64,000 nucleotides of DNA, from assembly GCA_973895155.1 (NCBI GenBank), contig OZ316894.1, forward strand, positions 11,463,892 to 11,527,891, in the 5' to 3' direction. Within the stretch, counting starts at the first letter, position 1; each line of letters starts with the position of its first letter. Both the position numbers and the translations under genes were made by a program. A model generated the notes under the pieces. The model had not been told where the DNA came from. It was given only the letters and a program-made list of their open reading frames with translations, and ran no database searches. Positions 38,269-64,000 of this stretch are shown one piece after another. The stretch comes from Marsupella aquatica. Taxonomy: Eukaryota > Plantae > Marchantiophyta.

Positions 38269-38271
<3 letters not shown>

Positions 38272-38299
<28 letters not shown>
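38272..38299. repeat. (GA)n microsatellite in the probable 5' UTR of cytochrome b5
   Basis: About 14 GA units directly visible. Confidence 0.9.
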
Positions 38300-38366
38300 C
38301 GAGTCGGTGAGTGAGATATCTCTCCGTCGTGCCCTGCGAGAGGGAGGAAACGAGCGAGTGAGCGAT

Positions 38367-39755
38367 ATGGCGAAGGTTTTCACTCTGGCGGAGGTGGAGA
38401 CGCACAACAACGCGAAGGATTGCTGGCTTGTGATCGATGGCAAGGTGAGTGAGACGGTGGGACTTGATTTCCTGCTCGGTGCGGTTCGTTGCTTCCGTTC
38501 TCGCGTGACGGTGGTCAGGTTTCTGGAAGAGTCGCTCGATTGTGTGAAATCGATGGGCTTCCCGGTGGAGCGATGTAACGCCGTGGTTGATTTGAGTGGA
38601 GTCGAGTCTAGATGTAATGGAGCGAATCGGGAGTTCGGAGGGGGTGAGTGTTGGATTTGTCGGAAATCCGTCTTTACGAGATTGGATCGCGAAAAAAAGC
38701 ACGGCGTTTTTGCCCTGCTCGGAATAGCTGGATAATGTAAGTGTCCGCCCTATTTGGAGGGGGCAAGTTCTTGTTCGTGTGAAGAACTCAATACGGAAAA
38801 GTCTACTTTTCTCCAATAGGGGGCGTGCGATGGGGGCCTGCCGGCCTAGTCTGGTCAGTGTGGAGCCTCACGGAGAGGTGTGAGCTGCTGTGAGCTGTGC
38901 GCAGTCTCCTCCGTCCAGTGCACCCTTGTTGTCCGCTATCAATCTTATCTGCCGTGATATGAGCTTAGTCATTACACGATAAGTACTGGATAGAGTAGAG
39001 GAGGACGGTGCCTACCACAAAACTCGTATGATGCTGGGACACTAGCATGCGGGGGTCATTCTTGCAGACGGTTGTAGGCACGATAAGTCTGTCGATTTCT
39101 TCTTTCTTTTCTCGTCTCTAAGAGCTGGGATTTGTTTGTTGTTCGTCGTGCTCTCTGTCTGTCCGTATTTCACAGGTTTACGATGTGACCAAGTTTCTCG
39201 AGGAGCATCCCGGTGGCGACGAAGTTCTCCTGTCAGCCACTGGTAGGGCTTTTCTCAGCCTCTCTCTTCTTTGTGGAGAAATTACCACTCTAGTTTCGCA
39301 TTGCATAGAAGATCTTGCTTAGCTTTGCTTTTTTTTAGCGAGCTGCAGTCTCTGTAAATGCCCGTCACATGCCTGCTCCGTTCGTGATGTCGTATTCTCA
39401 CTTGAGGGTGGAGGGCAACTGGACTTTTACCTCCTCGAAGAAGTGACATTGATTGTGAGCCTGATTTTCTTCGTGTGCGGCAGGCAAGGATGCGACTGAT
39501 GATTTCGAAGATGTCGGTCACAGTAACAGTGCTCGAGAGATGATGGCGGAGTACCTTGTCGGTGAGATCGATGCCTCAACTATTCCCTCGAAAGCCACCA
39601 CCGTCAACCGAGCCAGCGAGCCACAATATAATCATGACAAATCTGGCGAGTTCATTATTAAGATCTTACAGTTTTTGGTACCTTTGGCCATTCTCGCTTT
39701 AGCAGTGGCTGCCCGCTTCCTGACCAAGAAAGAAGAACCAGTCCCCGAGTTGTAA
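38367..39755 (+). CDS. CB5: Cytochrome b5 (tail-anchored), 138 aa; exons 38367-38444, 39176-39242, 39484-39755
   Basis: MAKVFTLAEVETHNNAKDCWLVIDGK|VYDVTKFLEEHPGGDEVLLSATG|KDATDDFEDVGHSNSAREMM...; heme-binding HPGG and GHS motifs, C-terminal TM FIIKILQFLVPLAILALAVAARF; GT-AG introns, 417 nt in frame. Confidence 0.96.
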
Positions 39756-42359
39756 GGAGTTTAGGGTTCCTGGTCTTCAAAGATCCGGTACAGATCTCTA
39801 CTCCCTTGCACGGAATCCGAGCAGGGTCAAACATTCAGTTCTTGTTCATAGTTGGCGTTTACCTGACCATTACGGAAATTTGGTTGTCGCTGCGGGCATG
39901 CCAAGGTGGAATTGGCAGCAGTGCTTCTCTCCACTATTCAACATTTGCGAAAATGCCTCTGGCTGGGGCAATATTCTTAATCAATTAGATAGGCTTAGCG
40001 TCGTGTGGATCACATAAGGAAAGTTTGCTTGAGAGAGAACACACGACCATTCTCTTTGTTATGAGTGCCTGGGAAAGAGAAACTCTAATTGAAGATTTGA
40101 GCAACAAGATGCATGCTTGTTCTTACGTTTTTCTCGAGGTGGCATTGCCGACCTTTCATGGAAATGATTGACGCGGTATGTGTTTCCAATATGCCCATGG
40201 TAAGATCTCTTTATCATGGATTTCTTCCCCGTCATTGCTTCTTACCATCTCCGTAAATGTTACGAGTGCTTTGCTGATACCTGTCGCTCGCTTACGAGAG
40301 GAGAATTTGACGTCCATGTCTAAGTCTCAGAATTGTCTTACGAAAGATGTCACATGCTCACGAAGATACCGGTTATGTGAAGTTTAAAATTGTTCGTCTA
40401 CCGTTTGAATAGTTACGAATGCTTGTGGCCACCATTGGCTGCAGTATATGGAGTAGAGCTCTCATCGGAACGTAAAGCCAGCCTTTTGGAACCAATTTTG
40501 CTATAAATGCACCGTGCTGTACTCTGGAATGGATCCTCTTCTATGAGTTCCTGTCCTTTTTGTTTGTAAGCAGTTATGTTCGCACAACTCCACTTCTGAG
40601 TCGTGTAGTGGAGATAAAATTACCTCGGCATGAGTGTAATTCGAATGGCATGTTATTGAGGTACCATTTATCTACGACTTTCTTCCAATCCTGTACCTGT
40701 CTCGTGCTTTCAATCCGAAGACTTATTCCCATCTCTCTAATCATATTTCGTCCTTCAAGGAGGCACTGATATCAGACCATTGTTGTCTACAATGCAGTCT
40801 TCGTAATGAAAGCCCGGATAACAAGGAATCAGCCTTGTTTCTCCATTTACCAGCGTTAGCCTTTCTGAAACCGGATGCAATCGTAGTCGAGTCCATCGCC
40901 GACCTCGTTCAACCCTCATCGGAAATAAATTACCTAACTCTTTTTGTTTATCTAGCTGATTCCCTTCTGGTGTCTTCATGAAGATGTGTCCAAGACATTA
41001 AGACATGGAAAGCCTCTTTGATACCTACCACGTGTACTGGAAAGTCATGTTGGGCAAGATAGTATGGAATCACAGGTGACAACAGGTGAAAACTGTGGTT
41101 GAGCTTCAGTTGAAGTGTGGGATTTTGTTTGTGGCTAGAATGTTTTCATCGTTTATTTCAAGATACGTGAATACCGAGTGGGAGTGAATGAAGACACAGC
41201 TCAAACTTGAGAACCGAAGTCGACCTTCCAAAATCACTTGCCAGTAGGGCGTGTTGGGCTTCTGCAATCTAATATCTCTTAGATGGCAGCTTCAATCAAT
41301 CTGCAGATGCATCGTTTGAGCTGCTTTGTTTTTGTTGTTGTTAGAGAAAGGTTTTTCCCAGAATGTATGTCAATCGGTGTTTGTTCACAAGAAGGACGCG
41401 ATGGTGGATTGTGAAGGGAGGAAACATAAGTATCCCTAGATGCAGTGTAACCATTTGTTGATTCAAACGTGTGGGCTAATGTCATTAGGAAATAGGAGAG
41501 CAAGAAGCTGGGTGGACTATTGAACTGAAAATTTGGGACAACAGTCGTCTAATTTTGCAAAGTACAATCGTCTAGAGCTGGACCCGAAGATTCCATTCTA
41601 AAGCTTTTTCGGAGTAAAAACAAAATTAAATGTGCCAACTTAGTCTGGTGAATCTTGACTAAGGCGGAAATTCCCACGTTGCTATTTAATTCTTTTGGGC
41701 GACCTGATCGATGTGGGGACGAAGCCCTTACTGGTGATCGTGCAAGCTGGCGTCACGAGAGAGAATCTCATTAAGCCGTAAAAGTTACTGTGAACGCATG
41801 AGGAAATTGTTCACAAAGCCATTTGTTTGAGCTCCTAGAGTTTTGAGGCTCATGTCACACGTTACCGCTGTTTGCCAAAATTCATTGCTGCCGTCAGTCC
41901 AGCTATATTATGTCCCCGTGGAATCAAAATAGGGGACACTACTATTTCTGATCCAACATTCCCTATATCAATTGGGGCATATTCACCCAACTGCCGAAAA
42001 ATGAGGCTGTTGATTTGGATCGGCAATTATAACAATTACAAAAATATTTGGGAGTCTTGTGACACTACCCTAGGCGTTATTTTCGCTGTTTTCCTGGACT
42101 GGCGCATAATGTCAAGGAAATGATTTTGGAAATGAGAAGGTGAGACGATTGAGAGCTGACTGTGTACATGTAGTTTGGGATCCTTCCCGAGGTGGTACAT
42201 GATGTGAATCTTTTGCAATCCTTGGCAGAGCATATGAGGAATGGGAAAAACATCACATATCATGTCCATTCCTACTAGAACCAGCCTAAAATGTAACACA
42301 TCACAGCTCCTCGAACTGTTGAAGTCGATCTTGGACTGTGTCTTCAATTTGATGTATTG

Positions 42360-42581: not shown

Positions 42582-42882
42582 ATGCTCTGATTAGCGTCCT
42601 CGGGTATCAAGCGTGTTCAGGTAGAAAGTTCCCTGACACTTAGTACCAGCAGCACTAGATTCTAGATTTACTCGCCGCGTACTCAGGTTGAAAGTTCCCT
42701 GACTAACACGAGCACTGCTTAGAACATTCCTTGCTTGATTAGAGCAACTACTGACATTCATAAGATTAGATTCGACTCAATCGACTCATTGCTTTGCTCA
42801 GGTTTGAAAGGTTCCCTGACACATCACTATTCTGCATTTTTTACCATTCTTCTCATTAGTGAATCAATAGTTTCTTTTTGCC

Positions 42883-45800
42883 ATGGAACTACTGAGGATA
42901 TTCTCCGACACCGATAAGCTAGATGGCACCAGTAACCACATGGCCTGGACCATTGTGGTTAAGAATCTTCTGAAAAAGGAAGACGTGTTTCATGAACTCA
43001 ACTTCAACGCCAAGCCTGACGCCAACGGCAACTTCATAGATGGCAGAGCCCATCTGACCGCCAAGGAGAAACAGAAGAAGAAGGACAAAGCTGTCGCCAT
43101 CCTTGCATCTACAGTGAAGTCCAAATTTTTGTCCACAGTGGACAAGTTCTCCGACGATCCAGCCAAGTGTTGGGAGCATTTTCATCAACGCTTTGGTGGA
43201 GATCTACTACAATGCCAGATGTTCCTGATGCAGAAGCTTCAGACTACACACATGGTCGAGGGGAGCTCTGTGGAACTCTACATCAACTGGATCAACGAGT
43301 TGGCCGGACAGCTTTCCAGCATCAACGCCGAAGTAGACGAAACGCGTCTCATGCATATCGTACTACAAGGCCTTCCGCTCAGCTGGAACGCATTTGTTTC
43401 TATTTTCAGTGCTGATCTCTCTCGTACTCCTAAACCAAATTTTTCTAACCTTCTTGAACGTTTGCAATCTGATGAATACTGGAGGAAGGCCAAACAGGCT
43501 CAAGCTGAGTCTCACGAAGAAGCTATGGCTGTTACACGTTCATTCACTCGTAGCCGGGGACGACTTTTTCATCACCCCGATTCTTATCCACCTCGCAACA
43601 ACTTCGACAACACTCCGCCTCAATCTCAATCTCGGCCCAATCCTGCTCTCTCAGTTGGACGTGGGCGGCGAATCGGCACCTGCAACTACTGTGGAAAGAC
43701 CGGTCACTGGGAACCAGAATGTGATCTAAAGAAACTAGATTCTCAAATCGCTGATCTTCAACTCAAAGCTGCTGGGATACGCAGGTACCAACCTCAAGCC
43801 AACAGTGTTGAGACCCCTCCTAACTACTACGATGGACCTAAGGACACCATAGAAGTCTACAACGACAATGAGCACGGTGAGTACTTTGAAGCAAACTACT
43901 CTGAGCTTGACACAACTAGCCATAGTCCTAGTGAGTGGATACTTGACTCCAGCGCAAGCACTCATGTTACATGAGACAGTTCTGTCTTCCGCACTATCAA
44001 CCCCGGCTCTCACTCCAAATCAGTGACTACTGCTAGCGGTACTCAGCTGCCTGTAGCTGGACATGGTACCATTTCTATTGATCGCAATAAAGAGATCAAC
44101 AAAGTTTTGTACGTGCCTGGTCTTCAACGGAACTTCTCTCCATTGGGTCCCTCACCGACGCAGGCCATCTCATTCTTTTCAATTCAAAATCCTGCTTTGT
44201 TTTTGACAAGGACAACCCGTCTAACATCTTCCTCAGAGGAGCTCGCGATCCTCGCAACCGCCTCTACAAACTGCGTCAACCACTGCCGCTCGTTCCTTCA
44301 CACTCATGTCATCCCGACTTACTTCAGCAGTCCCCTATTTTGCTCACAGAAGTCTCTCACACCGACCTTGTCGACCTCTGGCATCGTCGCCTCAATCACG
44401 TGAACTACCAGATGGTGCATCACATGTCCACGGGGTCCTTAGTCACTGGGATACCACCCCTTCCTCGGGTAAAACGGGTTTGCGACACCTGTGTTCTAGG
44501 CAAACACCATCGGGACAAAGCTCCCAAATATTCTCGCTCTCAATCTTCTCGACCTCTGGAACTCATTCACTCCGACCTTTGCGGACCAGTTCATGGGCCC
44601 GGTCCCACCAAGTATATTCTCACTCTTATCGATGATTTTTCACGCTTTACTTGGGTTAACTTCCTCGCTTACAAAAGTGATACGTTCGCAAAATTCAAGG
44701 ACTTCAAGATTCTTGTTGAAAACCAATTCAACCACAAATTAAGTTGGTTGTCTTCGCTCAGATCGCGGTGGGGAATACATGTCCGCAGAATTTCTATCTT
44801 TTTGCAGGCTCCATGGCATTCGACGTCAACTAACCGTAACTAACCGTAGCTGACTTTGCACACCAAAATGGCATTGCAGAACGCAAAAACCGCACCCTAC
44901 TTGAAGCTGCCCGGACCATACTAATTGATTCTGGTTTTCCACTGTCTCTCTGGACTGAAAGTATCCGTGCAGCTAATTACGTCCAAAATTGATCCGGCAC
45001 ACGCGCCCTTCATCAGACTACTCCATTTCAGGCTCTACATGGCTCCAAGCCCGACCTCAGCCACCTCCATGTTCTTGGTTCAACTGCATACGTTCTTATA
45101 CCGGCCTCTCATCAGACCAAGCTCGGCATCAAAGCCATCCGCACCACCCTTCTCGGCTATGACGATCAATCTAAGGCCTATCACTGTTTTGATGCTACAC
45201 GCCAACGCATTCTCATCTCCAAAGATGTTACATTCGACGAGAATACCATGGGCATTCACGTCACCAATCCTACTGCCGCTCAACTACTATTCCAATCTCT
45301 CCTCACTGATGATATTCCTACAGCTTCGCTCGCTCCGGCAATTCTTGCTCCAGAGGGGGAACCAGTGCCCGATCAAGCACCTGATCAGGAGCCTCCAGTT
45401 CTAGAAGAGGAGTCTGTCTGTGAACCTCTGGAACCAGTATGTGAACCAATTGTGCCTGAGCCACTTGTTATTAATCTTGTCCCACCAACACCTCAACCAG
45501 CGCTATGACACTCCCTTCAGACCCGACAACCACCACCTTGGCACAACGACTACGAAATGAGCAGCAATCTTGTCAAGGCCACTGGATCTGAATGTGGAAA
45601 TCTATCTGTCGAAGAGGCTCTCAAACACCCAGGATGGAAGAAGGCCATGGAAGATGAAATCAAATCTCTCCTCGACATGGGCACGTGGGAGCTAGTCTAC
45701 CTCCCTGCTGGACGACGCGCCCTCACAGCAAAATAGGTCTTTCGTGTCAAGCCCGACTCAACCAGATTTTGACTGAAAGCTAGGCTCGTTGCACGTGGTT

Positions 45801-47005
45801 TTGAACAAAAGTTTGGCATCGACTACAATGAAACCTTCGCCCCTGTAGTCAAATGGTCCACTCTGCGTGCTGTCATCGCCCTTGCCATAGCCAACGGATG
45901 GGAGCTACACCATATGGACGTCATCACTGCTTTCCTCAATGGCACCCTCACAGAAGACTCTACATGCAACAACCTCAAGGTTTTGAGACTCCTGGAAAGG
46001 AAACAATGGTCTGCCGCCTACGACGATCACTCTACGGTCTCAAACAATCTCCTCGGGCCTGGTACAGTGAAATCGACTCTCACCTTCGAGAAACTGGATG
46101 GACCCGTAGCACTGCAGATCCGAATCTCTACTTCTATCACTCAAATGGGGCGCTTCTTATTCTCATGCTCTATGTTGACGATCTCCTCATCACCGGCAGC
46201 GATTCTGGCAAAATTGCTGACATCAAATCCCATCTCCAACACAAGTACCAGATGAAGGACCTCGGCTTGGCCCAGAAATATCTTGGCATTGAGTTCCTCC
46301 AAACACCTACTGGCCTCATTTTACACCAAGCTACCTACTGCCAGGAGCTCATCAACGAATTTTCCATCACCACATCAACGTCAATTCCACTCCCTGAAGG
46401 CCACATCCTCACAACTGATACTAACACCCCGCCATTTGACACAAGTGCTTATTGCCATGTTGTTGGCAAACTTATTTTTTTAACTCATACTCGACCTGAC
46501 ATCTCCTATGCCGTCGGCATCGTCAACCGTTACATGAGCGCTCCACAACAACGACACTGGGATTCTGTTCAAAACATTCTCAAGTACCTACACGACACTT
46601 CTGACTATGGGATTACCTTTGTCAATACATCTACGACCTCCCTTTAAGGATTCACTGATGCTGATTTTCTTGGATGCCCGGAAACTCGTCGCTCCCGTGG
46701 TGCTTACCTGATTCAACTGGCGAACGGTCCCATCTCATGGTCCAGCAAGCTTCAAAGTACCGTCTCTGACAGCACCACTGAGGCAGAATACAAGGCACTT
46801 TCCGAAGGGGCTAAGGAAGCTGTCCATATTCGCAGACTACTTGCCGAACTTGATCCTCACTCCAAACTTACCGTTCCTCTCACTTCTTCAAACTCATCCA
46901 TTCATCACAATCTCTCCCATGCACATATTCCTACCTCTGCTGACATCCACTTACACTGTGACAACCAGAGATCTATCAAGCTCGCCAACAATCCCGTTTT
47001 TCATG
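42883..47005 (+). pseudogene. Copia gag-pol polyprotein with several stops and frameshifts
   Basis: UBN2-type gag (VLQGLPLSWNAF), zinc knuckle CNYCGKTGHWEPEC, protease WILDSSASTHVT, LWHRRLNH, integrase ELIHSDLCGP/IDDFSRFTWV/QNGIAERKNRTL, RT MDVITAFLNG/LYGLKQSPRAW/YVDDLLI, RNase H GFTDADF..STTEAEY..CDNQRSIKLANNPVFH. Stops at 43972, 44990, 45506, 45734, 45770, 46645. Confidence 0.93.
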
Positions 47006-47500: not shown

Positions 47501-48772
47501 GTTTATGTTAGACTTGTGTGTGCATCTAGGTTAGAGTTTGAATGGGGGAGGAGGAGGGAGGGAGGTGAAAGGTGAAAGAGGGAGGAAGGGAGTTGGAAGG
47601 TGGATGAGGGACGGAGGAAGAAGGGAGTCCAAAGAGGGTTTACTAAAAATAGGAGAGACTTTAGCGAAGAGGGAGGGAGGAGAAAAAGCTATGGAGTTTT
47701 TGGAAGAGGAAGGAGAGTTTGGGTTCAAAGAGCCCGGAGGAGGGATAAGGGAGGGAGTACCCATGTCACTTATATGCATGACCTCTTTTGAAAGTAGGAG
47801 TCCAAAATGAAAATACCTACCACACTAATGGTGTATGAAATATTAATTAAGAAACAACATGAACAATCCATGATATAGATTTTTGGTTTAAATATCCATA
47901 AGTGTCTCTCACACTTGCACTAGAAGAATCCGAGGTGAACTGAGACCGCAATATATGACTCATTTTGGCTCATGTGACTTCATTGTGACTCAACGTGACT
48001 TGACCCACGCTGTGACCCTTGGAGTTGCAAAAGTTGAGACCAAAAAATGGAAGTCACTATTGATACTGGGCTTTGCAACTTGCTTGATACCCATTTGTGA
48101 CTGATCTGTGACTTTATTGTGGAGTCTAGCCTTGTTTTGACGTGACTGCAATATGACTTCAGCGAGTCACATCATAAGTCACATACATGACTTACCCGCA
48201 TTCAACAACGACTAGCGTGTGACTGTTTAGTGTCACAGGAGAGACCAATGGAGACCTTGGCCCGCGTCACACAACAGAACCATTTGGGACTCTATATACT
48301 CATGTTTATAACTAATAAGGTTCACATGCAAGTTATAACCATGACTAATGAACACAGAGGGACAGTTCATAAGGAGAGATTGCACTCGACATTACAATAC
48401 ATAGAAACCTGATGTTCTAACTTTAGAAATATAACACATTGAATACAAGAAATGAACATAGCATGAATGACATCCACATGAAACAAAGCATCATATAAGC
48501 AGATCCTACATAAAACATTCATAAGAATTAAACACAATCACAATCTTGCTAAAAAATGAAGATCATTTGAATTCCAATGGAATAGTTTACAATGTGATCA
48601 ATGTAATTTAGACAAAACAGGAACTCATAATTGATGACTGTAGGATGAGATAACTGAAAGCACATGCATGATACTATGAATCTCCAAGAGGACATGATTC
48701 TTGTACTGCTTCTTGACATCTAAAATCTACATAACATGACTCACACTACAAACAAATAATGGCATGACATTG

Positions 48773-51700
48773 TTATGGATCCTCTATGAACTTGCTTGGC
48801 CATAATACCAAAGAACCTGCAGCATCTCCAAGTGTCTTTTGAGGAGGATCATCATTTGTGTTTGGAATGGGAAGGACAGCTTTAGGTTTCACTAGTAATG
48901 TGACTAACACTACTGAATAACCTGGGGGAATCCTCTTGCCATGGAACGTTGTGGAACCAACCTGCACTCTGGCAAATCCTACTCGTGTTCCACTCTCATC
49001 AACAGCTAACAAGCCACTTTGTCCCTCAGCATTAGGTGCTTTCCCCACTTCCACCTTAGATCTTTCTGCCAACACTGTTCTTGGAGGTTTGTATGAAACC
49101 TTTGACGTGGCTCTGCTCCCACCAGCAGACTTGCTTCGTGTGCGCATGCTTCCTCTCTTCACAGTAGTGAAGCTAGGCTCAGTAGGTTCCTCTGTTAGGA
49201 CTGTCACAGTAGCAAGTTCATCACCTGGGAGTGTCATACCAACTAACTCTTTGGTTGGATTTATCTCAACAAGAGGCACACCTGTCATTGAGAATGATAC
49301 ATTCTGCAAATCATTTATCTCTGCAATGGAGTCAAGATCTACATAGCATGAATCTGGCTCAATGGTATCATTGTCATGCTTACTGATATCCTCATTTGCC
49401 CCAACATTGATATCATCCACTCCCTTGCCAATGTCATCCTCATCCAAACATGGTTGACTGCCCTCTGTCAAACAAGTTGCTTGTACAGACTGCAACTTTG
49501 TTGCCTCTAAATTACAACGAGTATTTGCCAGGTTCTCATACTTCTTCTCTGTAGCACCTGTCTTATTCTCTATGGACACAACAACCACAATATATGTTAC
49601 TAAAAATAACACATTCAACAAACAATGTCAATTGAAACTATACATTTAATAATCATATCCCACACAGTTGTAAAGGCCTTACCTTCAAGCCTACATGTCG
49701 TTGGCATGCCAGAAGAGTGCATCAACTTTGCCACCTCAAGTGGTGATGGTGGAACTCCTACAGAATTGGAATCAATTTTATCTCTCACCGATACAACAGC
49801 TTCCATTAATGTCTTGAAGTTCACATGGAACAAGTCAGTCAATGAATTCAAACGTTCATTGATCTCTGGAAGACATGTTTCGACAGCCTTCAAACGACCA
49901 CTTATCTCTGTAAGTGAAGATCCACCTCCCTACATGACACAGGGGTATAGGTTCAATCACTCCATATGAAATGTTGGGCAATATATGCACAATCAATGTT
50001 ATATACAGTGTACACCTGAAATTCAACGCAGGTCATTCAATTACCAATCAGAACTCATATAACTTACATGCTTGGAGGATTCAGATGCACCCTCTTGAGC
50101 CCGGGTGTTCACAATTTCAGCCCTCAACTCTTCTTTTGAAGGGCTTTGCCCCAATTGGGTTTTCTGCACATGCATGGCAAACACAAGTTATCGATCAATA
50201 TTCAAGGAACGTACACTAAAAAACAAAGTTTACATGTATGGGTTTACACTAAAAAATAGTACATAGTGTAGCATAAATTACATAGCTAGGCCATTCATTC
50301 TTACCAAACGTTTAGCTGTCGGTGCAGTGCCGGTCCTTCCTGTCAGATTAGGGTTCTGAACACTCAACCTGGCCTCGGTCATCTGTGAACTCTTCTTTTT
50401 TGAAGCATCTGTTACAAAATAAGCTACTAACCTTGCCCACACTTTATCATCACAACTGGCTGGTGGAGGCATATCTGGCTTCTCCCCACCTTCCTTCCAA
50501 GCCTTATGCATTCTCCACCTCTCTTGCTTGATAATTTTACCTGCTGTACTCTCTAGGCAACCTATGTCCACGCCATCATCACTGCCCACATAATTCCATT
50601 TGGCAGCAACATTTTCACATACAGTCTTCCAATCTTTTGGATGCTGTTTTTTAAAATTAATAACACTCACATCTAACCAACGCAATACTTCAGCTTTCAA
50701 ATCAGCATGCCATCGGTTCTTGCGAGGACACTCAGCATCCACCCATTGTCTCTCATTCAACTTTACGTTCCCTTTCTTTGTCACCTCCCCTCGTGCACTG
50801 CTCTCGGTAGTACTGGGCGTTGTATTGGTCACCCCTTCATTCACCCTACCTGGGGTTCTGAAGCCACCTGGGAAAATACAATGCCATTCATGCTTGAGAA
50901 CTACATATAGCAGAATGGATGACGGCAACATTCAATGCTTCACTTCAAGAAAAATTCTTCAAACATACATACCTGTAGCTCTGCCTGTAGATGCCTGTGC
51001 AGGGACTGCACTCTGAAATTGTTGCGACCCTGGACCACCTGTCCAGCCTAGTATAGGGGCCGGATGATGTCACTTTCTAGGTATGTGTGTGCAAACATAT
51101 GTACTGAAAACTAAGTACAAATTGTAGGAAAACAACTGAACATTCACCGACATACCTGTCCCCCTTCCGTGCTGCATCTGCATAGGGGCATTAGTGAATA
51201 CTTGAGTCGATGGTTCGACTGTCCAACCTGCACACATACATTTTCTATCATTATACATGTGTAGAGTCCCCCCCACGTGAATGGACTCCACATATAATGA
51301 GTTCTTCCATTGCTGACAAGATCAGACATTACCTGCTCCTCTTCCAGCGTTTGTAGGTACTGAATTTTGATATCCCTGCCAATTACCTTCACCACCTTCC
51401 CAACCTTGTTCATTCCACGACCCACCACCATCCTCCCAACCTGGTTCAACCCATGTCTGTCCTTGTGGACATTGGAACTGATCATTACTAGCATTTGCCC
51501 AATCAGGTTGGGCAGAATCTGCATGCAATGGCAGGTGGACAGAATTTCATGTTGTTTGAATCCAATACATCCCAAACAATGTCAAAAATTGATATGCAGT
51601 CTGAAATTCAGGAGTGCCATGCCTTCACAAAGAACTGGCATATAGATATATACTCACATCCCCATGGTTGAGGTGGACGTCCATACCCACGAGATTGTGG

Positions 51701-52477
51701 GTTTGGACCTGCTCTGCCTCTACCACGGGCATAACCTAGAGCTTGCCCCCTGCCATAGTATTGGGCACCAGCCTGGGATCTACCACTACTACCACCTTGC
51801 CAACCTTGATCAGAGGTCAGCCCCCCTGCTGGTATGGTGCATGCACAGGCTTCGAAGGCAAAACAGAACTGGCAGGACGCTGCATCACATCACCAACTAC
51901 AATGTCAGGAACTAAGCAAGGTACATATGTGTAGTACTGAACATATGAAACCTCTAAACAAGAGTTTTTAACTCAAAACCTTGTTGGGAAAACTACTTAC
52001 ATGTTTCTTTTGGGGCTGCTCTGCAATGTATTCATCTTCATAACCCCCATCCTCATCCATTTCCTCTGGAAAATACTCATCATCTGCACGTCTTGTCTAG
52101 TGTTTGCACCCACCTGTGCAGCATCAATGTCATCTCCACATTCTGCCATTGTAGGTACGACCTTCTTGCTCAACCTATCACTCCGACGCACAGGCCCAGA
52201 GATAGTGTTGGTCACCCTTCTTGCGTACTCCTTTTGTTTCTTTGAAAATGCTGTGGCTCTGCGACATTCCAATATGAGAATACAATCACAATTTCAGTGC
52301 CACATTGAACTATTCATGTCACACAAACTCAGCGGAGGGGTGTAGTTGAGAATCGTTCCCTTACAATTCAGCCACATCCTTTTCCAGATCCAGTTCTGCG
52401 ATTTTGGCTTTCACGTATGCTCGTTGTTCCATAGCTTTCCTTTCATACTCACACATCTCTGTGTCACTCTGTTCCAT
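48773..52477 (-). pseudogene. CACTA TnpA/Tnp1-like multi-exon accessory gene (probably frameshifted)
   Basis: About 10 GT-AG-bounded exons from ATG 52477 (MEQSDTEMCEYERK..; RRSDRL). Includes Gly/Gln-rich exons, a Ptta/Transposase_24-like exon (PPPASCDDKVWARLVAYF..KKSSQMTEAR, 50867-50304) and a Tnp1-like C-terminus (TFHGKRIPPGYSVVLV..LPIPN..TLGDAAGSLVLWP). Apparent frameshift near 52090. Exon model approximate. Confidence 0.65.
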
Positions 52478-52633
52478 CCTACTGGACCACAAAAACATGT
52501 CATCTATGGTCACCCCATATAACACAATGCAACCACAATCACCAGGCATCCATCCATACATCTGTGTTGCTTCAGAATTACTTTATTACACATCCTTCCC
52601 CTCACTAATGTCCATGCAAACAATTCACATTAC

Positions 52634-55600
52634 TCATGGCACAGGCACACTGTTGGCATCTGCATCTCTGAATTCGCCTCCTTCAGCAAATGCATCTACC
52701 CTTGTCACAGGAATGAAGTCCCCGCTATCATGAACTACAGGCACTTGGTCTGAACGCCGACGATCAAAGGCACTATGAGAGTGTAAATGAAACTCAAGGT
52801 TTGATCCTTCCATCCGACGTTGCCTGGCCTGTTTATGACACACTACACGCCAACCTGGGGAGTCTTCCACATCCAGGAAGAAAGCTTGCTCCACCTGACT
52901 AGGAAACACAAATGGCTCAGACCATTCGGGCAATTTCCCTCTGAAATTGGCCAGCAAGAAACCGTCGTTGTCTCTCTTCATGGTAGCCCTGTTACCAAGC
53001 CAATCCTGCCGCACCCATGAACCTTTCATAAGAATCACAGGACTGGACACCGCCCCATAGTCCAGAGCCCATATGTCAACTAATTCTCCCACATATCCCA
53101 TCTCCATCCAGGCCCTGTCGTGATTGTGGCTCTGTTGCTCAAATACAGTGATGAGCCCGCAGTCATTCGTCACCCTGTAGGCACTGTCACCATCCTTCAC
53201 TCGGAAGTGATTCCCATATGCTCTCATCCGTTTGTAAGTCTTCACTTTCAGGCTAGGTGCATTAGACAGTAGGTAAACATCTGCATCCATGTCTGGGTGG
53301 GTCTCGTGATGCTCTCTAATTGCCACTCTGATCCACTCCATGAAACCTGGAAACGTTGTTCCTGCAGTGGGATGGGCCGCCTTCAATGACTCATACTCCC
53401 TGAACGAACAACCACACAGCATTAGCTTGGGTAAACATGAACAGGCTGAAGGAGAAAACCACACAAACACAACATTTAAGCTCATGAACTGGATTATAGC
53501 ACATGTATGCACTCACTGTATCCAGGGTTCCATCACCACAGTGTTGTGCAATACAAAGTCATGTGCCAAGTCTCTCATAGATATGGTCAGGTTCTTTGTG
53601 GTTGCAGCCCCTTCCAGTACTTCACCTATCACCCCTTCCTCCTCATCAGAATTCCACACCCTGGTCTTCACATGCTCATATTGTGCTATGTATTCGGTCA
53701 GAAATCCCAGAGTCTCATCCTTGATGTAACCTTTAGCCATGCTTGCTTCAGGTTTGTAATATGTTCTCACGTGACCTTTGAGTAGCTTCATGTACCGTTC
53801 CAAAGGGTACAACCAACGAGCACTCACAGGCCCAAATTGGTGTAGCTCTTCCACAACATGGACAAGTAGGTGGGTCATGACATCAAAAAATGCGGGAGGA
53901 AAATAAATCTCCAGGTCACACAGCACCTGAGCGACATCTTCTGTCAGTTGCGGGAAGTGTGTTTCATCCCAAACCTTCACACAAATACGACGAAACACAT
54001 CACTGAGTCGCATGATCACAGTACGAACAGGCTTCTGCAACAGGCCCCTCAGGCATAAAGGCAACACCTGTTGCATCAACATATGGTAGTCATGGCTTTT
54101 CATACTACCAAGCTTTCTAGTCATGATATGCTTCTTGAAAGCACTGCCATAGTTTGAAGGAACCTTCAAAGAACTCAACCTCTGCACAAATAGTTCCCAC
54201 TCTATGTCTGTCAGAACATAGGGCGCTTGGTACTTCAAGAGCACATCAGCTCTGTGGGCATGTGGCCTCAACCAAAGATGGGGTTTCATTCCCCTCTGTT
54301 CAAGATCCAATCTCACTGAACCAGTGTCTTTCTCTCCACACAAGAATCTGAGTAGACTCTCACAAATATTCTTTTCAATGTGCATAACATCAATGTTATG
54401 TTTGCTTGGCTCAAACTCCTGCATCGTTGCAATGCAAAAGCGTCAGGAAATGCCTCAAGTTTAGTCTCTCTCTTCGAAATGAATGCACATGCTCTGAACC
54501 AAAACATGTATCCCAATTAGCATCAACTCCAAGAGGCTTACCCTCCAGTACTTGAGCTCCAAGTACAATATGCTCAGTCTTTTTACACCATATCGCTTTA
54601 TTGGATCACTCACTCCATCTTCCCTGCCCCCTCGTTTGATATAGTCATCCCTCAATGCTCCCCACTGCCTGATCTCCTCTTTGGTCACTCGTGCCGGGGG
54701 TCCACGTTGCTCAATCTCATTGCCAAAGTGTGCAATCAGTGCCTGTCTTTCTCTGTAAGGGTGATCTGCCTTCAGAAAACGACGATGGCCCATGTATATC
54801 ACTTTCTGCAGGGCTCTGGAGTACTCACTGGTGACATTGCGCCCACAGATAGTACAAGCACAATATCCTTTTGTTGTTTGGCCTGATATCATCCCATGGG
54901 CTGGGTAGTCAGCTATAGTCAGAATGACAATGGCTCTAAGGATGAATGGGTTTAACCTCCCAAGCCTCTATAGGACATCATATGTGAGAACTCCTTCCTC
55001 CCAAAGCTTTCTCAATTCCTCCACTAGGGGAGCCAGAAACACATCTATGTTGGCAGATACAGCACTGTCTGGCCCTGGTATCAGTAGGACCATCAGAACA
55101 AAAAATCGCTTTGTAGTCATCCAAGGAGGAAGGTTATAATTCAAAATAGTTACAGGCCAGCACAAAAATTTGTTGTTCTTGTCTCCAAATGGGTTTACCC
55201 CATCCAATGACAGCCCAAGTCTGACATTCCTCGGCTCAACAGCAAATTCGGGATACATCTCATCTATGAGTTTCCATTGCCTTGAATCTGCAGCATGTCG
55301 TTGTAGCCCATCATCACTTTTCTTGTCAGTTGCCCAAGTCATCATCTCCGAGATGGCATGGCTTCTGAACATCCGCTGAAGTCTGGGAATGAGTGGAAAA
55401 TGACGAAGTACCTTGGCAGGAACCATAGACTTTCCTGAGTTCCGATACCTGTGCTTCCCACACTTAGGGCATGTCAACGATTCTTTATACTCCTTTCTGA
55501 AAAGAACATGCCCATCAGGACAGGCATGGATCGAATCATAGTTCAATCCAAGATTAGATATGCATCTTTTTGCCTTGTACATGTTCTTGGGCAAAATATT

Positions 55601-56365
55601 ACCATCTGGTAGCACAGTTGTTCGCAAGAATGCCAACAACTCAGAAACCAAAACGTTGGGGACATTGTGGTTGTCGCAAATGTTCAGGAACATGATGACA
55701 AATCCCAGTTTAGAACATTTGCTACCGGGGTACAAAGACTTCCTGCCTTCCTGTATTTGCAGGGGAGAGCCAAACATCCCATCATGCCCAGGGGTTTCCT
55801 GCCCTATCTCAAACTCATCAAGAGGCTCTTCGACAGGGGGCACACTTGCATCTGCAGCCGTATCCTCTTCGTTGTCCAGCCCATCATGAAATGCATCAAA
55901 GTCTTGGAAGATGTCTCTCACCATCTCGTCCACATGAATTCCTTCGTCACGTGGTGCTGCCTGAGCACCATCCCATTGGAGAGCTGACAACCCATAGAGA
56001 CCAGCTACAACATTTTCAAATGCACCAGGCAGAACCTCACTTGCCCGTCTTGCAGCATTGGCAGCATCAAATTCTAACCTCCACTCCTCGTCGGAAGAAT
56101 CTTCCTCTGCAGGATCATTCCAAACTCGATGTCGTGGATCTCTTCCATGAACCGCGATATGCCGCCAAACCTCATTCAGACCCCTGGTACGGGATCCTTG
56201 GTAGATTGCACAAGGACATCTCATCCTACTGGCTCCTGAAAGTCTGGTTCGTAACCTTTCACGCTGCCAAAGCTTATTATCATGGCGTGATATCCTTGTG
56301 GGATGATGCAAAGGCAGTGCCTGTGCCCTGGGCTGGGTCTGGGGAGGGTGGTGACCAGGGTGCAT
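52634..56365 (-). pseudogene. CACTA Tnp2/TnpD transposase; exons 56365-54542, 54418-53517, 53399-52634; one in-frame TAG at 54970-54968
   Basis: Transposase-associated CPC..V.RH motif, IHACPDGHVLF, LRHFPLIPRLQRMF, EPRNVRLGLSLDGVNPF, WPVTILNYNLPPW, IDVFLAPLVEEL, DYPAHG..SG, IDVMHIEKN, DUF4218 FPPAFFDVMTHLLVH..WLYPLERYM, DUF4216 EPFVFPSQVEQAFF. The frame continues across the TAG. Confidence 0.92.
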
Positions 56366-56798
56366 TGTAACAGGCTGGGAGCTCTGCAGTCATGGACAGC
56401 AGTGAACAAGGATGCCTAATGGTGGTATTTGTGTTCCATATATCCCTGACTGTATCTGCCAAAAGAGTTAACATAACGTGTACTAAATTCTCACAAACCC
56501 TAAACCACCCCAAAAGAAAAAAACAGGTTCGCAAGTAGTGTACCTATTGTCAAGTGAATGACACAAAATTCCTAAATGTTGGAGGGTGTCACCACCTCCT
56601 CCGCTGTCCTCAAATGTACCGCCTCTACATGTACGTTTACAGTGACACCCCCAGGCAGCAGGAAACAACAATCTGCCAACAGTAAAATAAGCCCAATTGC
56701 CACCAACCATAACAAGGTACATTAGTTCAAAGATCACATTTATTTCAATGATCTGATTTATACAAAAAAACTTGTGTCCAAACTGATGCTACTACTCC

Positions 56799-57678
56799 TC
56801 ACTCTGATTCAGAATCGCTAATGACCCATTCCTCACTTGTTGTCTCATAGTCCTCTCTGTAAGGATCCTGACCCTTCCGTGGCCAGGCCTCAAAAAGATC
56901 ATAGTCCATTGGGTTTTGACGCTTCCCAGCTACTACTGATTCCACAAGCCAAGCATATGAAACCACAAACACATTATGGGACATGACATAAAAGCGAATG
57001 TCTCCCTTCCCAAACTTGCGGCAGGCTTTGGGATATGACTTAGTAATGACATGAGTGGTGTCCTCTGTTATATTCTCCTCCACTGTCCACCTAGGTCAAG
57101 CACTGTGGACTTGTACACTTTGCACTTAACCTCTCCAATTCCCGCCTCCACAAATACCATGCTCAGCCCTTTCAGAATGGGGGTTGGTTGCTTCGTCTCC
57201 TCAGCCAACATACTCTTCAGCCTTGTAGAGCTCTGTCCTTTGTTGAGTACAGGTCCATATTGGAGATCAGCAAGCCGTGCCTTTGTGCTTCCCAGACTTC
57301 TTGTTCAGCCCAAGCTGATGCAGTAGCTTCTTCATCCTCCCACAACTCATATTGCTCAGTATCCTGTACAATCTTATGTGCTATGGAATCTGTGATCCAA
57401 AAGGCCTCAACTACTTTTAGGCCTTGCTTAGTAATTGTAGAATTCATGTAGGACCATGACCACTTCTTTATCACTGATAGCCATGTCCCTGTAACAACAT
57501 GTGTAGTCTCTGGAGTGATGTCCTGAACTACAGTGCCATGGAGCTCAGAGAATCGTTTCTGTACAATTGGCCAATGCACTTTGGTCAACCCATGCTGGCC
57601 ATGGACCAAAATCGCTCTGACCCCTGTAAACACTGCTGGGTGGTCACACTTTCTACGTTTACCAGGCTCCATGTACAC
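56799..57678 (-). pseudogene. Tandem BRCT-domain gene (two repeats), frameshifted, carried next to Tnp2
   Basis: Repeat 1: VFTGVRAILV..FSELHGTVVQDITPETTHVVT..VVEAFWITDSI..EQYEL. Repeat 2: ILKGLSMVFVEAGIG..VLDLGG/TVEENITEDTTHVIT..VVSYAWLVESV..MDYDL, with a 1-nt shift near 57087. G(G), THV and WxxxS hallmarks of BRCT. Confidence 0.8.
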
Positions 57679-58264
57679 ACACCCTACGTGATGACAGTGA
57701 ATTTTGGAAGAATGGGTTCACCTGACAATACAAGGACAACAAAATTCCTGCTTTTTGAGTTGATCTGGCCCACTGGTGCTCAGGTCCGATTTTGATAGGT
57801 ACAAGGGATATGTGAACAATACGTACTAGGCACCTACACGGATGCAGGACATTGTTTGAATATATACTACAAAATCCATATCCGTGGTGAAATGAAGTGC
57901 AACCAACTTGTCATGGCACATACATATTTTGTTGTAAAGGAGGATACATTCAATGACAAACTTATAGGGCAATTTGATTAATTGCATGCCTGATAATTTA
58001 TACGCTTACAACTTAGAAGTCCTGTTTTAATTTAGCAGTCTGATGAAAGTGTTTATGAAAATGACCACTCAGCCTAAATACTTCCAAGAAGGCTTGTAAG
58101 GATAAGTTTGTATAGGCATGTACCCAGCCACTGACGCCAGAGCACAAGATAAGTGCTGCCTATATAAACTCGCCTACCCAACTCCTTTTCAAAATTGGAA
58201 TCTCTGCAATCTCAAAAAATAGTACATCCACATCAGGTGCACTGTGCATGTACAATGTTCAGCT

Positions 58265-58945
58265 TCACAGCCAAGATATGTGATCTCTCACAGGAGTGCG
58301 CGAGGTAGGATCAATGGCATGGCGATGACAATAAAATATCCATCGATCAACACCATGTGCAGAGTGATCATAGATTTCTCTGTCACAAGCATAACCCTCT
58401 GCTTGATGATCTTTCAGGCAATGATAGTGCCACATAGTGGGACACCTAGCACAGTGGACTATGTCAGTCCAGTAGTCATCATCATGCTCACCACATGCCT
58501 TGCACCTATGAAGTGGGCAAGCTGTGGCATGAGTAGGCAAACACTCAAAACAGAAAAATCTCACACAAAAACGGTCTGGACATTTCCTAACATTTGCTGT
58601 AGCATCAACAGAGCCCTTATAGGACCCCAACTTCCCACACTGTGCACACTTAGCCTGCTTCTCCAAACAATCAGTGCACATCCAGTCTCCCTGGTGTGTT
58701 GACGGGAGGCCCACCCCTGGACAGTTGTTTTCTACAGCAAGGTCAGACTCCGGGTTGAGGTGGAAATGCCTCATGCAAGGGCCCTCACAAATGACCAGGC
58801 CCCCACCATCGTCACAAATGGCACAACAATGAGCTGCCTTCTGGAAAATCTGACTTGCAGAGAAGTTAGTAGCATCTGCCCCAAGTACACCTGTGTTTCT
58901 CACCTCAGTCACACGCTTTTTGGCTTGAATTTTAGGCCGTGCCAT
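58265..58945 (-). CDS. Stand-alone EDM2/NSD-type PHD-finger cluster protein, 226 aa, intronless
   Basis: CAICDDGGGLVICEGPCMRHFH...W.CTDC....AKCAQCGKLGS...C....C..FF...C...CPLHRCKAC...CARCPTMWHYHCL...IFYCHRHAID....TPVRDHI follows the recalled EDM2 PHD module in order. Splice acceptor gcgcag 2 nt before the ATG. Confidence 0.82.
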   Translation of the reverse strand: MARPKIQAKKRVTEVRNTGVLGADATNFSASQIFQKAAHCCAICDDGGGLVICEGPCMRHFHLNPESDLAVENNCPGVGLPSTHQGDWMCTDCLEKQAKCAQCGKLGSYKGSVDATANVRKCPDRFCVRFFCFECLPTHATACPLHRCKACGEHDDDYWTDIVHCARCPTMWHYHCLKDHQAEGYACDREIYDHSAHGVDRWIFYCHRHAIDPTSRTPVRDHISWL

Positions 58946-58956
58946 GCCTGCGCATG

Positions 58957-59100
58957 AGATAGACTCTACAATTTAGCAGACTGCACAGAAAGTAAAATAT
59001 ATTTAGCATTTAAGTTACAAAGGCATTTAGATAGACTCTACAATTTAGCAGACTGCACAGAAAGTAAAATATATTTAGCATTTAAGGTACAAAGGCATTT
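58957..59100. repeat. 72-bp tandem duplication, 1 mismatch
   Basis: agatagactctacaatttagcagactgcacagaaagtaaaatatatttagcatttaag[t/g]tacaaaggcattt x2. Confidence 0.92.
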
Positions 59101-59715: not shown

Positions 59716-60165
59716 CTAGAGCATGTGATCCAAACATGTGTAGACACCAAAGTCACCGGTGGTGGGGTCTAGGAGGGCAGGACAAGTGACATCACCAGGC
59801 ACACTGCAGGATGGCGAGTGGTTCCAGATGATACATTGTGCTCTATGCAAAAATCGGCATCCAAGAGAACGGTCATCCAATTCTGGGCCAGAAGCCCTAC
59901 AGGCAGGACAGTCATATTGGCAACTGTGTACACACCCTTGGCACCTAATTTGTGGCGGGTCATGTACAAGAGACACAAATACCAAGGATGTCGGGAAGGG
60001 TACTGAAGCAGGTAGAGGCCGGCTGTAGTTATTCCTGGAAACAATAGGGTACTCAAAGTACCATGCAGACTGGGCTGGAAGGATCCCAAGTCTGACATAC
60101 TCAAGGCGCAACATCTCTGCCTTGCGTGCAAGTCGCACATGTTCAGCGTTGCGGGTCCTCACCAT
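59716..60165 (-). CDS. Orphan Cys/His-rich protein, 149 aa (putative Zn-binding)
   Basis: ATG-initiated ORF co-oriented with the other element genes; basic N-terminus MVRTR; CxxC-x3-C-x3-CxxC...GC-x3-H-x3-C...TCxxH. No family recognised. Confidence 0.45.
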   Translation of the reverse strand: MVRTRNAEHVRLARKAEMLRLEYVRLGILPAQSAWYFEYPIVSRNNYSRPLPASVPFPTSLVFVSLVHDPPQIRCQGCVHSCQYDCPACRASGPELDDRSLGCRFLHRAQCIIWNHSPSCSVPGDVTCPALLDPTTGDFGVYTCLDHML

Positions 60166-61511: not shown

Positions 61512-64000
61512 GTAGTGCGGGTGCAGGTTCCCAATTTTGAAACAATTTGGCTCATTTTATGTCCCGAGGGACTCCAGGAGTTTATGTATTGAGTTTCTAG
61601 GTGAAGATGCTTAATATAAGGAAATTCAATTATCACTTCGTTCCCAACTTCTATTAATTGAATATACACAAGCTGGAAGCAAGAAGACAAGCCACAATCT
61701 AGCATCTTAGCCAAACACAATCGTTCCGACAAAGCAAAACTCAGCTGGACAGAAGTCACTCGGATCCACAAAAAATTGAAGATTCACCTCCAAGCCGGAG
61801 GCCGATCACTTTAGTACAGCAGCTTCTGGATGGAACAAACTCTGCTCAGCCCCACAGAAACACAAATGTTAAGGCTCCAAGTCAGAGCTCACAAACAGAA
61901 ACTCAGATAAATAACATTCAAAATCTGTCCAGGTTTGTGCAAAGTGTACATATTCATTCTTCTGGAATGAACACGCAATCCATAAGAACGAAAGTAGGAA
62001 GGCAAGCGCACGGGCCACCGAGAAAAGTAAAGGATGCATGTGTTAGTGGGGAGGGATCTTAGCAAAAACAGGGGAAAGCAAGGGAACTTGCTGCTAAAAT
62101 CAGCTGAACGATTGCACGGTTCCTATAATATTTAGTGGACCTTAAGGCCGTCTGTTCACCCCCCCACCCCACCGCCAGAGCATGGGGCACAAGGCATGTT
62201 CTGATACAGGGAGGAGCGAAACAGTCATGTCAAGCAAGAAGTGTGGAGAGACCAATCAGTAAGCAAAAATAGGGGAGAACATACATACATCAGCAGCAGC
62301 AGGAAACAAGAAAGATGATTTTGGGTGGCATCTTAGGGTCGGGGACACCACTGCAACACCGGGACTTAGGATATGACTAAATGTAAGCTACACAGTCCTC
62401 CGTTCTCTTCAACAATTACCTTAAACAGTGAAGTAATCTAAATGGATGTTGATCAAAATCAATTGCAACTACGCGGCCCTTGGTTCTGCTGTGGCTACAG
62501 TAGCCAAGAGAACAACTCAGAGCCTTGATTGAAGACTGTGCTCTCAAACTAAGCTAAAGACAAAGAGATATAGAGAGAGACAAAAAAAAGTTGACAGGAG
62601 TGCAAAGCGAGAACCCACTCCCGTTCTTTCAACACCCTAAACCCCGCTGCCTGACTTAAGTTGCATGGCGACAGAAGCAGTCATTGAAAACTTACCTTGT
62701 GATGACAAAAACGCTCTGGGATGGGCTGCTACTCCCAGGACTATCCCACACTCTTAGCGCCCCGTTGCTATTGAGCCACACTTCAGTTCAGCCGCGCACG
62801 CTCAATCTTTGTCATTCAGCTAAGTTCAGCTCCGCAGGGCCTGGACTCACTCTCATCCAATTTCAGTTGATCAGTATTGCAGCTCTCTGCTCCCAAGAAC
62901 AGGTCCTTGCGTTTGTTGAGCGCCTCTATAGACTCACTTACCTCCAAAAACACTGAAAGTTTTTATCTGCATTACAATGAGCTCTAAAGACCAAAAACAT
63001 TCCCGCCTAAACTGAAATAGAGTCCGCAACTACAAGCTTTGCAGCTCAACTCTCTGAGCTCTCCCAGCTCAAAGGTATCAGCATGTTGTACCCACACTTG
63101 ATCGAACGCTCTTCCAATGCTCGCTAGGTTGATCTTCCAATGCTCACGGTAAGCTATGGACACCAAGCTCAGAAGACCGTGGGGAGACAACTAAACTTGC
63201 AGCGACGTAGGACCGCAAAGATAGGGATTACAGCTTTACCTGGGGTGATGCAGCACCAAGCCGTGCTGCGTAGCAATCCGCAGCAAGAATAGTCCAAATG
63301 CAAGCCAAGTGACAAGCTCCTGGTTCTCGATCCCAAGTTGCAACTGAATATCGAATTCACTCTCCTAGCTTCAAGGAATGAGTGTCTATTGAATGTTGAA
63401 TTAAATTCTCGCAAACTCTTCACAGTGCTTCCCGTAGTGCCTATTGTCGATGCAACACACAATCACTCTTGATGCCTACTACTCACATTCCCTTTTCTCA
63501 ATGCAACACACACTCGCTCTTCTTGCCTCCTACTACTCACATTGCCCAACGATCAACGAAAGCAGAAGGACAGGACAGGGAGAACCCTTTTGCAGCTCAG
63601 GACGGCAAGGCTAGGAGTGTATACACATCGGGCCGCAATAAGGTCCAACCTCAACTTCAAAAAGTGCAACGCCAAAACTGGAAGTCGGGTCCAATAACAG
63701 TCGTTAGTAGGATGTGAAAAAACCCCTAAAGTTGCAGCATTGCCATACTCTACTTCCTCACCCGGTAGCGCTAGGCATTCGACCTCTCTCTTCCAAAGAC
63801 CTCGATGACCTCCCACCAGCTCAATGACGATGGCACGCAAAGCTTCCGTTTGGCTTGCAAACCCTTGAGGCAAACCAACTCCCTTGGAGACCCTTCCCAA
63901 AACCCTATGCGGGAGAGAAATGCCGAACGTGAAGACCACTCACTTGTCTTCCCATTGAAGTGGAGACATTAGTTCACAAAAGAGACACAAAAGTCTATGA

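Follow-up and report, generated by a model that had tools for sequence, protein, structure and literature searches.

Plant EDM2-type proteins possess a cassette of atypical PHD fingers, namely a C4HC3 finger followed by a C4HC2H finger, as described in the accessible portions of PMC3776765 and PMC7529245. According to the available part of PMC3632883, EDM2 both promotes and represses transposons, with opposite effects on different ones. Transposons are also known to reuse host chromatin genes. VANC, which is MAIN-like-derived, is a transposon reuse of a host chromatin gene against silencing in the account given by the accessible sections of PMC13547354, and fungal TET/JBP genes in EnSpm and other transposons are a further case of such reuse, as stated in the available text of PMC12730594. 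Accessory genes that DNA transposons have derived from host chromatin genes are therefore a known kind (VANC, TET/JBP). An EDM2-type PHD gene in a CACTA element was not found in the literature searched, which included the accessible parts of PMC13317346, PMC13547354, PMC12730594, PMC6446971, PMC11982613 and bioRxiv 10.1101/2022.09.21.507229, with Repbase, subscription journals and supplements outside its scope. In this study, we focus on a stand-alone triple-PHD gene in a 64-kb stretch of liverwort DNA, analysed as a whole and hereafter called the window. The explanation that we prefer, with a probability of about one half, is that it is a conserved, captured PHD gene kept by selection as an anti-silencing adaptor or decoy.

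The CACTA element around the PHD gene

The element, including the probable interruption at its right side, is composed of the following features (window positions):

47918..48270, plus strand: terminus of the CACTA element (CACTAGAAGAA) and its cluster of subterminal GTGACT/ATGACT/GTCACA repeats
48773..52600, minus strand: TnpA-like gene, multi-exon, with a Transposase_24 match (E 1.5e-4, below cut-off) in 50278-50931
52634..56389, minus strand: CACTA transposase (Transposase_21, DUF4218, DUF4216)
56799..57672, minus strand: tandem BRCT accessory gene, BRCA1-like
58265..58945, minus strand: stand-alone triple-PHD ORF of the EDM2/NSD type, 226 aa, intact in the window copy
59716..60165, minus strand: Cys/His-rich accessory ORF of 149 aa, starting MVRTR, without a Pfam family
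62349..64000, plus strand: lower-depth sequence starting CACTG, CACTGCAACACC, with weaker CpG depletion

The transposase is recognized by Pfam with E values of 2.4e-42 and 4.6e-28 (Transposase_21/DUF4218). Its frame carries a premature stop at 54968-54970 in the window copy, where contigs from the public runs have another base, and two other breaks in the frame resemble introns. The tandem BRCT gene is nearest to the BRCA1 BRCT among solved structures (E 1e-4), has a TATA-like box at 58166, and shows His-Gly at the position of the phosphate-binding Ser-Gly of BRCA1. Its frameshifts near 57086 and 57284 are absent from most of the contig depth in runs X1 and X2, and no BRCT cargo in CACTA elements was found in a literature search. 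The PHD ORF stands between this gene and the MVRTR ORF. Two unnamed homologues of the latter (56% and 54%) share its MVRTR motif and end in a similar way; it lies in the region with the top contig depth of the whole element and appears to be a third conserved accessory gene. The window copy of the element is decaying.

At the right side, no partner terminal inverted repeat was found in 48.5-64 kb, and a 3-bp target duplication is likewise absent from the window; the right CACTA end probably lies outside the window, the element being apparently interrupted by another insertion at 62349. The sequence from 62349 is likely a nested CACTG-type element hiding the right end; an LTR end with a primer site was considered as an alternative, but contigs beginning exactly at CACTG suit a nested element better. 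Contig depth in four public runs is high over 47.9-62.35 kb and about tenfold lower past 62349, with a summed depth in run X1 of 1500-8500 inside the element versus 167-314 beyond it. Contig depth is not copy number, and the four runs were found with 56.7-59.2 kb as the query; read in this way, the pattern is what would be expected of a multi-copy element that a further insertion has broken up. Over 58.1-60.25 kb the depth is 2-5 times that of the neighbouring sequence in three of the four runs, and the PHD cassette may also be carried by other elements.

The ratio of observed to expected CpG is 0.25 in the PHD ORF, 0.24-0.45 in other parts of the element and 0.93-1.03 in two host genes, and CHG is not depleted. 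The CpG depletion shows that the PHD ORF has long resided in methylated repeat DNA. Depletion at CG only, taken together with the named homologues, suggests that the host is a liverwort. The claim of the initial annotation that the gene lies in a transposon span is supported by the CACTA end at 47918, the transposase, the TnpA-like exons and this CpG depletion, with one terminus identified. The two CpG controls belong to three host-gene lookalikes recognized by eye (an IQ67-domain protein, a TPR protein and a cytochrome b5) at 10400-17000, 23349-23837 and 38217-41000. Elsewhere in the window, a broken Ty1/copia retrotransposon at 42871-47000 (plus strand), left of the CACTA end, retains pieces of gag, integrase, RT and RNase H that carry frameshifts and stops, and a 558-aa ORF at 20376-23065, by eye like a C-terminal LINE ORF2, is flanked by a 281-bp exact direct repeat.

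Structure of the PHD gene

An uninterrupted 226-residue ORF with a basic leader and a Cys/His array, ending four codons after TPVRDH, had been annotated initially, and it reads as described: on the minus strand, 226 codons run without an internal stop from the ATG at 58945 to the TGA at 58265, beginning with MARPKIQAKKR and ending with TPVRDH-ISWL-stop. Its parts, all on the minus strand, are as follows:

58947 and 58980: putative 3' splice acceptors of a 5'-UTR intron, within the 72-bp tandem duplication 58957-59100
58826..58945: leader, residues 1-40, basic MARPK... and then the family motif F[ST]xxxxxQ[KC][AS][AP]H
58667..58825: PHD finger 1, C41-C93 (C4HC3)
58508..58648: PHD finger 2, C100-H146, with Cys132 as fifth ligand (His in hosts) and about 20 residues deleted in C135-C143
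58319..58504: PHD finger 3, C148-H209 (C4HC2H), with RCPxxWH and [WY]xH as in a liverwort paralog
58265..58318: EDM2-type C-terminal motif TPVRDHI and conserved stop

Three NSD-type PHD families of Pfam are matched in order, PF23011 (E 5.8e-5), PF22908 (E 3.6e-3) and PF23004 (E 7e-5), each below its curated cut-off. When the ORF is aligned with plant EDM2-type proteins, Cys or His is found at all 24 zinc-ligand positions, so that the ligands are retained as first annotated, and the YC..H.I...TPxRDH motif at the C-terminus of EDM2-type proteins is present. The AlphaFold2 model based on a 70-sequence alignment has a pLDDT of 89.8 and a pTM of 0.86, a model from only 6 sequences (pLDDT 48.4) having been set aside. 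In fold searches, the former resembles NSD PHD-C5HCH, PZP and double-PHD domains, although the matches cover it in part and score modestly (best Z 5.1). When 56.4-62.35 kb was resampled 500 times under a first-order Markov model, two of the resamples contained an ATG-initiated ORF of at least 226 codons; the length by itself is unusual only to a moderate degree. The ORF is regarded as real because full-length relatives align as one HSP in one frame: when 10 PHD proteins were searched against the window by tblastn, each of the nine full-length relatives gave a single HSP in a single frame, and no second copy of the module was found within the 64 kb.

On an approximate donor matrix, the best GT donor in the last 140 bases of the ORF scores -0.3, compared with 5.6-7.0 for evident donors elsewhere in the element, and no upstream donor scoring above 3 with an ATG-bearing frame was found before the ORF. 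T-rich AG acceptors lie 2 and 35 nt before the ATG and make a 5'-UTR intron plausible, so that the label 'intronless' holds for the coding sequence and is too strong for the 5'-UTR. A coding upstream exon is disfavoured because the start Met is conserved. Two candidate connections were rejected: splicing from the PHD to the BRCT gene, for which 26 in-frame GT-AG joins exist in principle, each relying on a poor donor by the same approximate matrix, and the PHD stop as a by-product of a GTGA donor, since the relative P0004 ends in Ile-stop and the donor scores -4.7. No longer fused form of the family was found among 2795 candidates (weak evidence), the three longer proteins obtained being one grass EDM2-type protein and two NSD proteins. 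The ELP methyltransferase-like, acidic, PGR and proline-rich domains of EDM2-type proteins are absent from the ORF. Its description as a stand-alone gene is upheld by the lack of a usable splice donor near its end and by the family-wide start and stop.

A family of short PHD relatives and its origin

A word-based search gave five homologues of similar length (217-245 aa) among 102 candidates, with 81, 74, 52, 37 and 38% identity over 97-100% of the PHD ORF; MAR stands about 34-41 residues ahead of Cys1 in all five, and the stop directly follows H[IV]SW[LI] in four. Searching 1.84 billion representatives with a profile yielded 569 matches at E 0.001, and among the best 150 of these the top matches are further short proteins from separate 50% clusters, several of them frameshifted and resembling decayed transposon copies. 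Among the same 150, these are followed by liverwort EDM2 and EDM2-like proteins and then by other plant EDM2; the best matches listed outside the family are thus EDM2 and EDM2-like proteins of plants, in keeping with the EDM2-type assignment made at the outset. Ten of the short relatives were looked up, and none has an informative name. The genomic context is known for the window copy only, the relatives being protein sequences. Twenty family members were tried and 18 scored, two not matching the pattern, and M[AT]Rx[KED] is found 33-49 residues before Cys1 in 11 of the 18.

A metagenome scan yielded no family member among 13 loci, which gave a grass EDM2 and grass short EDM2-like genes that served as references, and none was present among 53 candidate stretches from prokaryote collections and 15 from viral ones. 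The grass short EDM2-like host proteins (L002-L007, P0034, P0041, P0044) are barely more than the PHD cassette, and PHD-only forms arose more than once, because these proteins fall outside the transposon family. A further short and very divergent PHD-only protein, P0156 (JGI/IMG, 226 aa), is devoid of the MAR leader and sits on a long branch with unsure placement.

The transposon family forms one clade with a long stem in three trees (support 93; 100; 100/100), namely a quick tree of 67 rows, a quick tree of 46 rows from which 21 of the 67 had been dropped (long branches and near-redundant hosts), and a careful tree of 33 rows with 34 dropped. It is nested inside liverwort paralogs with C-terminal PHD in the 67-row tree; in the 46-row tree this nesting is not kept and the sister is unresolved; in the 33-row tree the family is sister to the liverwort C-terminal-PHD paralogs with support of 69/75. 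AU tests (LG+G4, 33 rows), with groups chosen after the first tree was seen, rejected a clade with three angiosperm EDM2 rows (p=0.0157) and rejected neither a clade with liverwort full-length EDM2 (p=0.32) nor one with NSD-like outgroups (p=0.34). The best trees place the family within the plant EDM2-type radiation, in agreement with the motifs below, whereas the outgroup grouping is not rejected (p of 0.34); an origin inside this radiation is a tentative reading, and the sister group is weakly supported.

The motifs are more telling. The Trp of RCPxxWH is present in 11 of 11 family members, in 7 of 7 liverwort paralogs (two of them near-duplicates) and in 8 of 112 other hosts, and [WY]xH in 9 of 11, 5 of 7 and 2 of 112, respectively. 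The median tail past the last ligand is 17 aa in the family, 20 aa in the liverwort paralogs and 629 aa in other hosts, and the paralog proteins end 3-45 residues after the C-terminal motif. An origin from the liverwort paralog, weak in the trees and clearer in the motifs, is what these comparisons favour, and the donor was likely a liverwort-type EDM2-like host gene captured long ago. Because the liverwort paralog itself ends just past the motif, a domain-precise C-end can arise without precise trimming, and the tidy C-end of the PHD ORF was probably inherited from the donor. The initial annotation had read the domain-precise ends as an exact capture of the EDM2 reader module; that interpretation of the ends is not supported, and of the capture claim the EDM2-type cassette stands, whereas a clade with flowering-plant EDM2 is rejected and the module has been remodelled.

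A remodelled module

Within the eight residues before Cys1, Asp or Glu is found in none of 18 family members versus at least one such residue in 127 of 127 host proteins. His occupies the -2 position from Cys1 in 17 of the 18, the AIRE Asp aligns with His39 of the PHD ORF, and the leader motif F[ST]xxxxxQ[KC][AS][AP]H stands where host proteins have their acidic stretch. The PHD ORF is thus without the acidic residue(s) before Cys1 that are the hallmark of a canonical H3K4me0-reading PHD finger, and it has His/Gln/Ser at the cage Trp position of K4me3 readers. In finger 2, all 12 family members scored use Cys as the fifth ligand, where 115 of 116 hosts have His, and the linker that follows it has 7 residues in the family versus a host median of 27. 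In NSD2 PHDV, unmodified H3K4 is bound through such an 'acidic hallmark', and mutants of it no longer bind, as reported in the accessible part of PMC11724302. The fixed changes of the family are hard to reconcile with an EDM2 reader in its original form and point to adaptation to a new task. With its acidic anchor gone, the protein could also simply have lost histone binding.

Signs of selection on the PHD gene

At least 40 variants are listed for 58150-59050 in the four runs, of which 36 fall in the PHD ORF: 15 synonymous, 21 nonsynonymous and no stops, against an expected synonymous share of 26% (p=0.032), giving an approximate dN/dS of 0.5 among the variants listed. Without the five variants private to the window copy, 14 of 31 listed variants are synonymous (p=0.018), and the three indels listed for the interval are all outside the ORF. 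Four of the five private changes are nonsynonymous, as is expected after insertion. The synonymous excess is a modest signal of selection, and the preservation of start, stop and ligands at 37% identity is the stronger one; together they are evidence of the purifying selection that the initial annotation had asked for. Because the ends are conserved, the family is a single clade and synonymous changes are in excess, this is likely a selected stand-alone gene and not a fresh neutral capture. That the PHD gene is a selected, stand-alone accessory gene of the transposon is the conclusion that we hold with high confidence.

Proposed role and competing explanations

In the scheme that we propose, the C-terminal PHD cassette of a liverwort-type EDM2-like paralog would have been captured long ago, all effector domains of the donor would have been lost, and a basic leader would have been added for nuclear import. 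The resulting protein may take the place of host EDM2-like proteins on their partners or at their chromatin sites while bringing no effector domain with it. A changed histone specificity or a non-histone partner would be likelier than a plain H3K9me2 shield, because the acidic K4 anchor is gone. Such a nuclear adaptor or decoy, blunting host chromatin silencing of the CACTA element, is a credible yet tentative assignment of function. Since EDM2 promotes as well as represses transposons, the sign of any effect of the PHD protein could go either way.

In the main rival explanation, the PHD protein would assist transposition by tethering the transposase complex to chosen chromatin, with the BRCT protein handling the excision break. 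The RAG2 PHD tethers RAG1 in a comparable manner. It fits this explanation that the PHD ORF adjoins the BRCA1-like tandem BRCT gene and lies near the transposase, but the gene is separate, without fusion to the transposase, and its product has neither the acidic K4me0 hallmark nor the K4me3 cage Trp. Even with the motifs that EnSpm transposases have in common with Transib and RAG1, according to the available text of PMC12730594, a role as transposition helper is doubtful.

A broader and rather unlikely version of the counter-silencing idea is an old liverwort-type CACTA lineage with a host-derived chromatin kit, in which the PHD protein would act as a counter-silencer on histone readers and its N-terminus might be a histone mimic. 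The members of the kit are the EDM2-type triple PHD, the tandem BRCT and the new Cys-rich protein. The histone H3 tail is ARTK. The family N-terminus (58934-58945, minus strand) is ARPK, with ARTK in P0014 and TRTK in P0048, and resembles that tail; a MAR[TVA] start is also found in many liverwort and algal-type EDM2-like hosts. The H3-like N-terminus could be a histone mimic or merely a common basic start. To probe the mimic idea, the leader (2-31) was modelled in complex with the PHD module (24-226), with scores of 0.32, 0.15 and 0.32 (mark 0.34).

According to another explanation, that of the initial annotation, the module is still the EDM2 reader in unaltered form; it would bind H3K9me2 and serve as a decoy or recruiter of the ASI1-AIPP1-EDM2 complex, allowing the long transcript of the element to be completed. 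EDM2 itself does bind H3K9me2 and favours the production of full-length transcripts across transposon heterochromatin, as given in the accessible sections of PMC7529245 and PMC9292364, and the PHD ORF keeps all of the ligands and the TPxRDH end. The explanation is nevertheless improbable in view of the missing acidic residues before Cys1, the His-to-Cys swap, the shortened linker, the rejected clade with flowering-plant EDM2 and the absence of every other EDM2 domain.

The PHD and MVRTR ORFs might also be part of a cassette or nested element of their own (58.1-60.25 kb), or of a multi-copy host family, and lie in the CACTA span in some copies only. Depth over this interval exceeds that of both flanks, a run X3 contig departs from the window just downstream of the stop (loose end 58221), and the grasses provide short PHD-only EDM2-like host proteins. 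A 549-base contig with a depth of 1641 and one mismatch, however, spans 57663-58211, so that it reaches from the start of the BRCT gene to within 54 bases of the PHD stop; no joint skipping the cassette is present among the 15 of 102 joints listed, no termini were found around 58.1-60.25 kb, and the CpG depletion matches that of the element. A host family is countered by the placement of the grass short proteins elsewhere in the tree, and we regard both forms of this explanation as very improbable.

Neutral Pack-CACTA cargo, i.e., an accidental host-fragment copy intact only through young insertion, could draw on the neutral decay of the window copy with its mostly nonsynonymous private changes, on the transposase stop and two BRCT frameshifts in that copy, and on Pack-CACTA capture as known from the available part of PMC13317346, but it is largely refuted by the preservation of start, stop and ligands across 37-81% identity, by nearest named host proteins that are just 31-34% identical, by the family-wide derived features, by the synonymous excess and by the transposase that the element itself encodes.

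Comparison with known systems

The PHD ORF has in common with Arabidopsis EDM2 and plant ELP proteins the cassette of atypical PHD fingers and the TPxRDH end, its module being 31-34% identical to that of six plant hosts. Unlike them, it has no acidic residue before Cys1, carries the His-to-Cys swap and a 20-aa deletion in finger 2, and resides in a transposon. The liverwort EDM2-like paralog (Marchantia MPTK1_1g03210, Riccia R1sor_003797, Calypogeia CAM6087769, M. paleacea Mapa_015239) is the best-scoring named single-module protein among the matches listed. Like the PHD ORF, it ends soon after the PHD cassette and has RCPxxWH and [WY]xH; unlike the ORF, it is 620-770 aa long with a long N-terminal region, and it has retained the His ligand, the long linker and acidic residues ahead of Cys1. 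A literature search gave no functional study of the paralog, and the present locus points to it as a likely player in transposon control. The NSD1/2/3 cassette is also related, since the family profile matches NSD2/NSD3 at E 5e-12 to 4e-9 and the NSD PHD-C5HCH fold resembles the PHD model (Z 5.1, rmsd 2.6, 75 aligned). In contrast to NSD proteins, the PHD ORF has no SET or PWWP, and the NSD match ends before the EDM2-type C-terminal motif, with scores far below those of plant EDM2-type proteins.

The CACTA ends around host-derived sequence recall Pack-CACTA elements (PMC13317346, accessible portion), one end being identified here. Unlike these, the present element has its own transposase, and its cargo is an old, conserved and full ORF. 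As a protein of 226 residues, the PHD protein is easy to test, and the natural variants within its family reveal which PHD surfaces are retained in a transposon and which are given up.

The VANC genes of VANDAL Mutator elements and the fungal TET/JBP genes resemble the PHD gene most in kind, each being a separate, host-chromatin-derived accessory gene that is intact in a DNA transposon (available parts of PMC13547354, PMC12730594 and PMC10398659). Their folds are unrelated to that of the PHD protein, which is a non-catalytic zinc-finger module; VANC recognizes DNA motifs, and TET has enzymatic activity. Anti-silencing has been demonstrated for VANC and, by analogy, is only proposed for the PHD protein. 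The counter-silencing known in plants (VANC) works through DNA binding in flowering plants, and a remodelled histone-reader module in a CACTA element would, if true, be a second route, acting at the level of histone readers in an early land-plant lineage.
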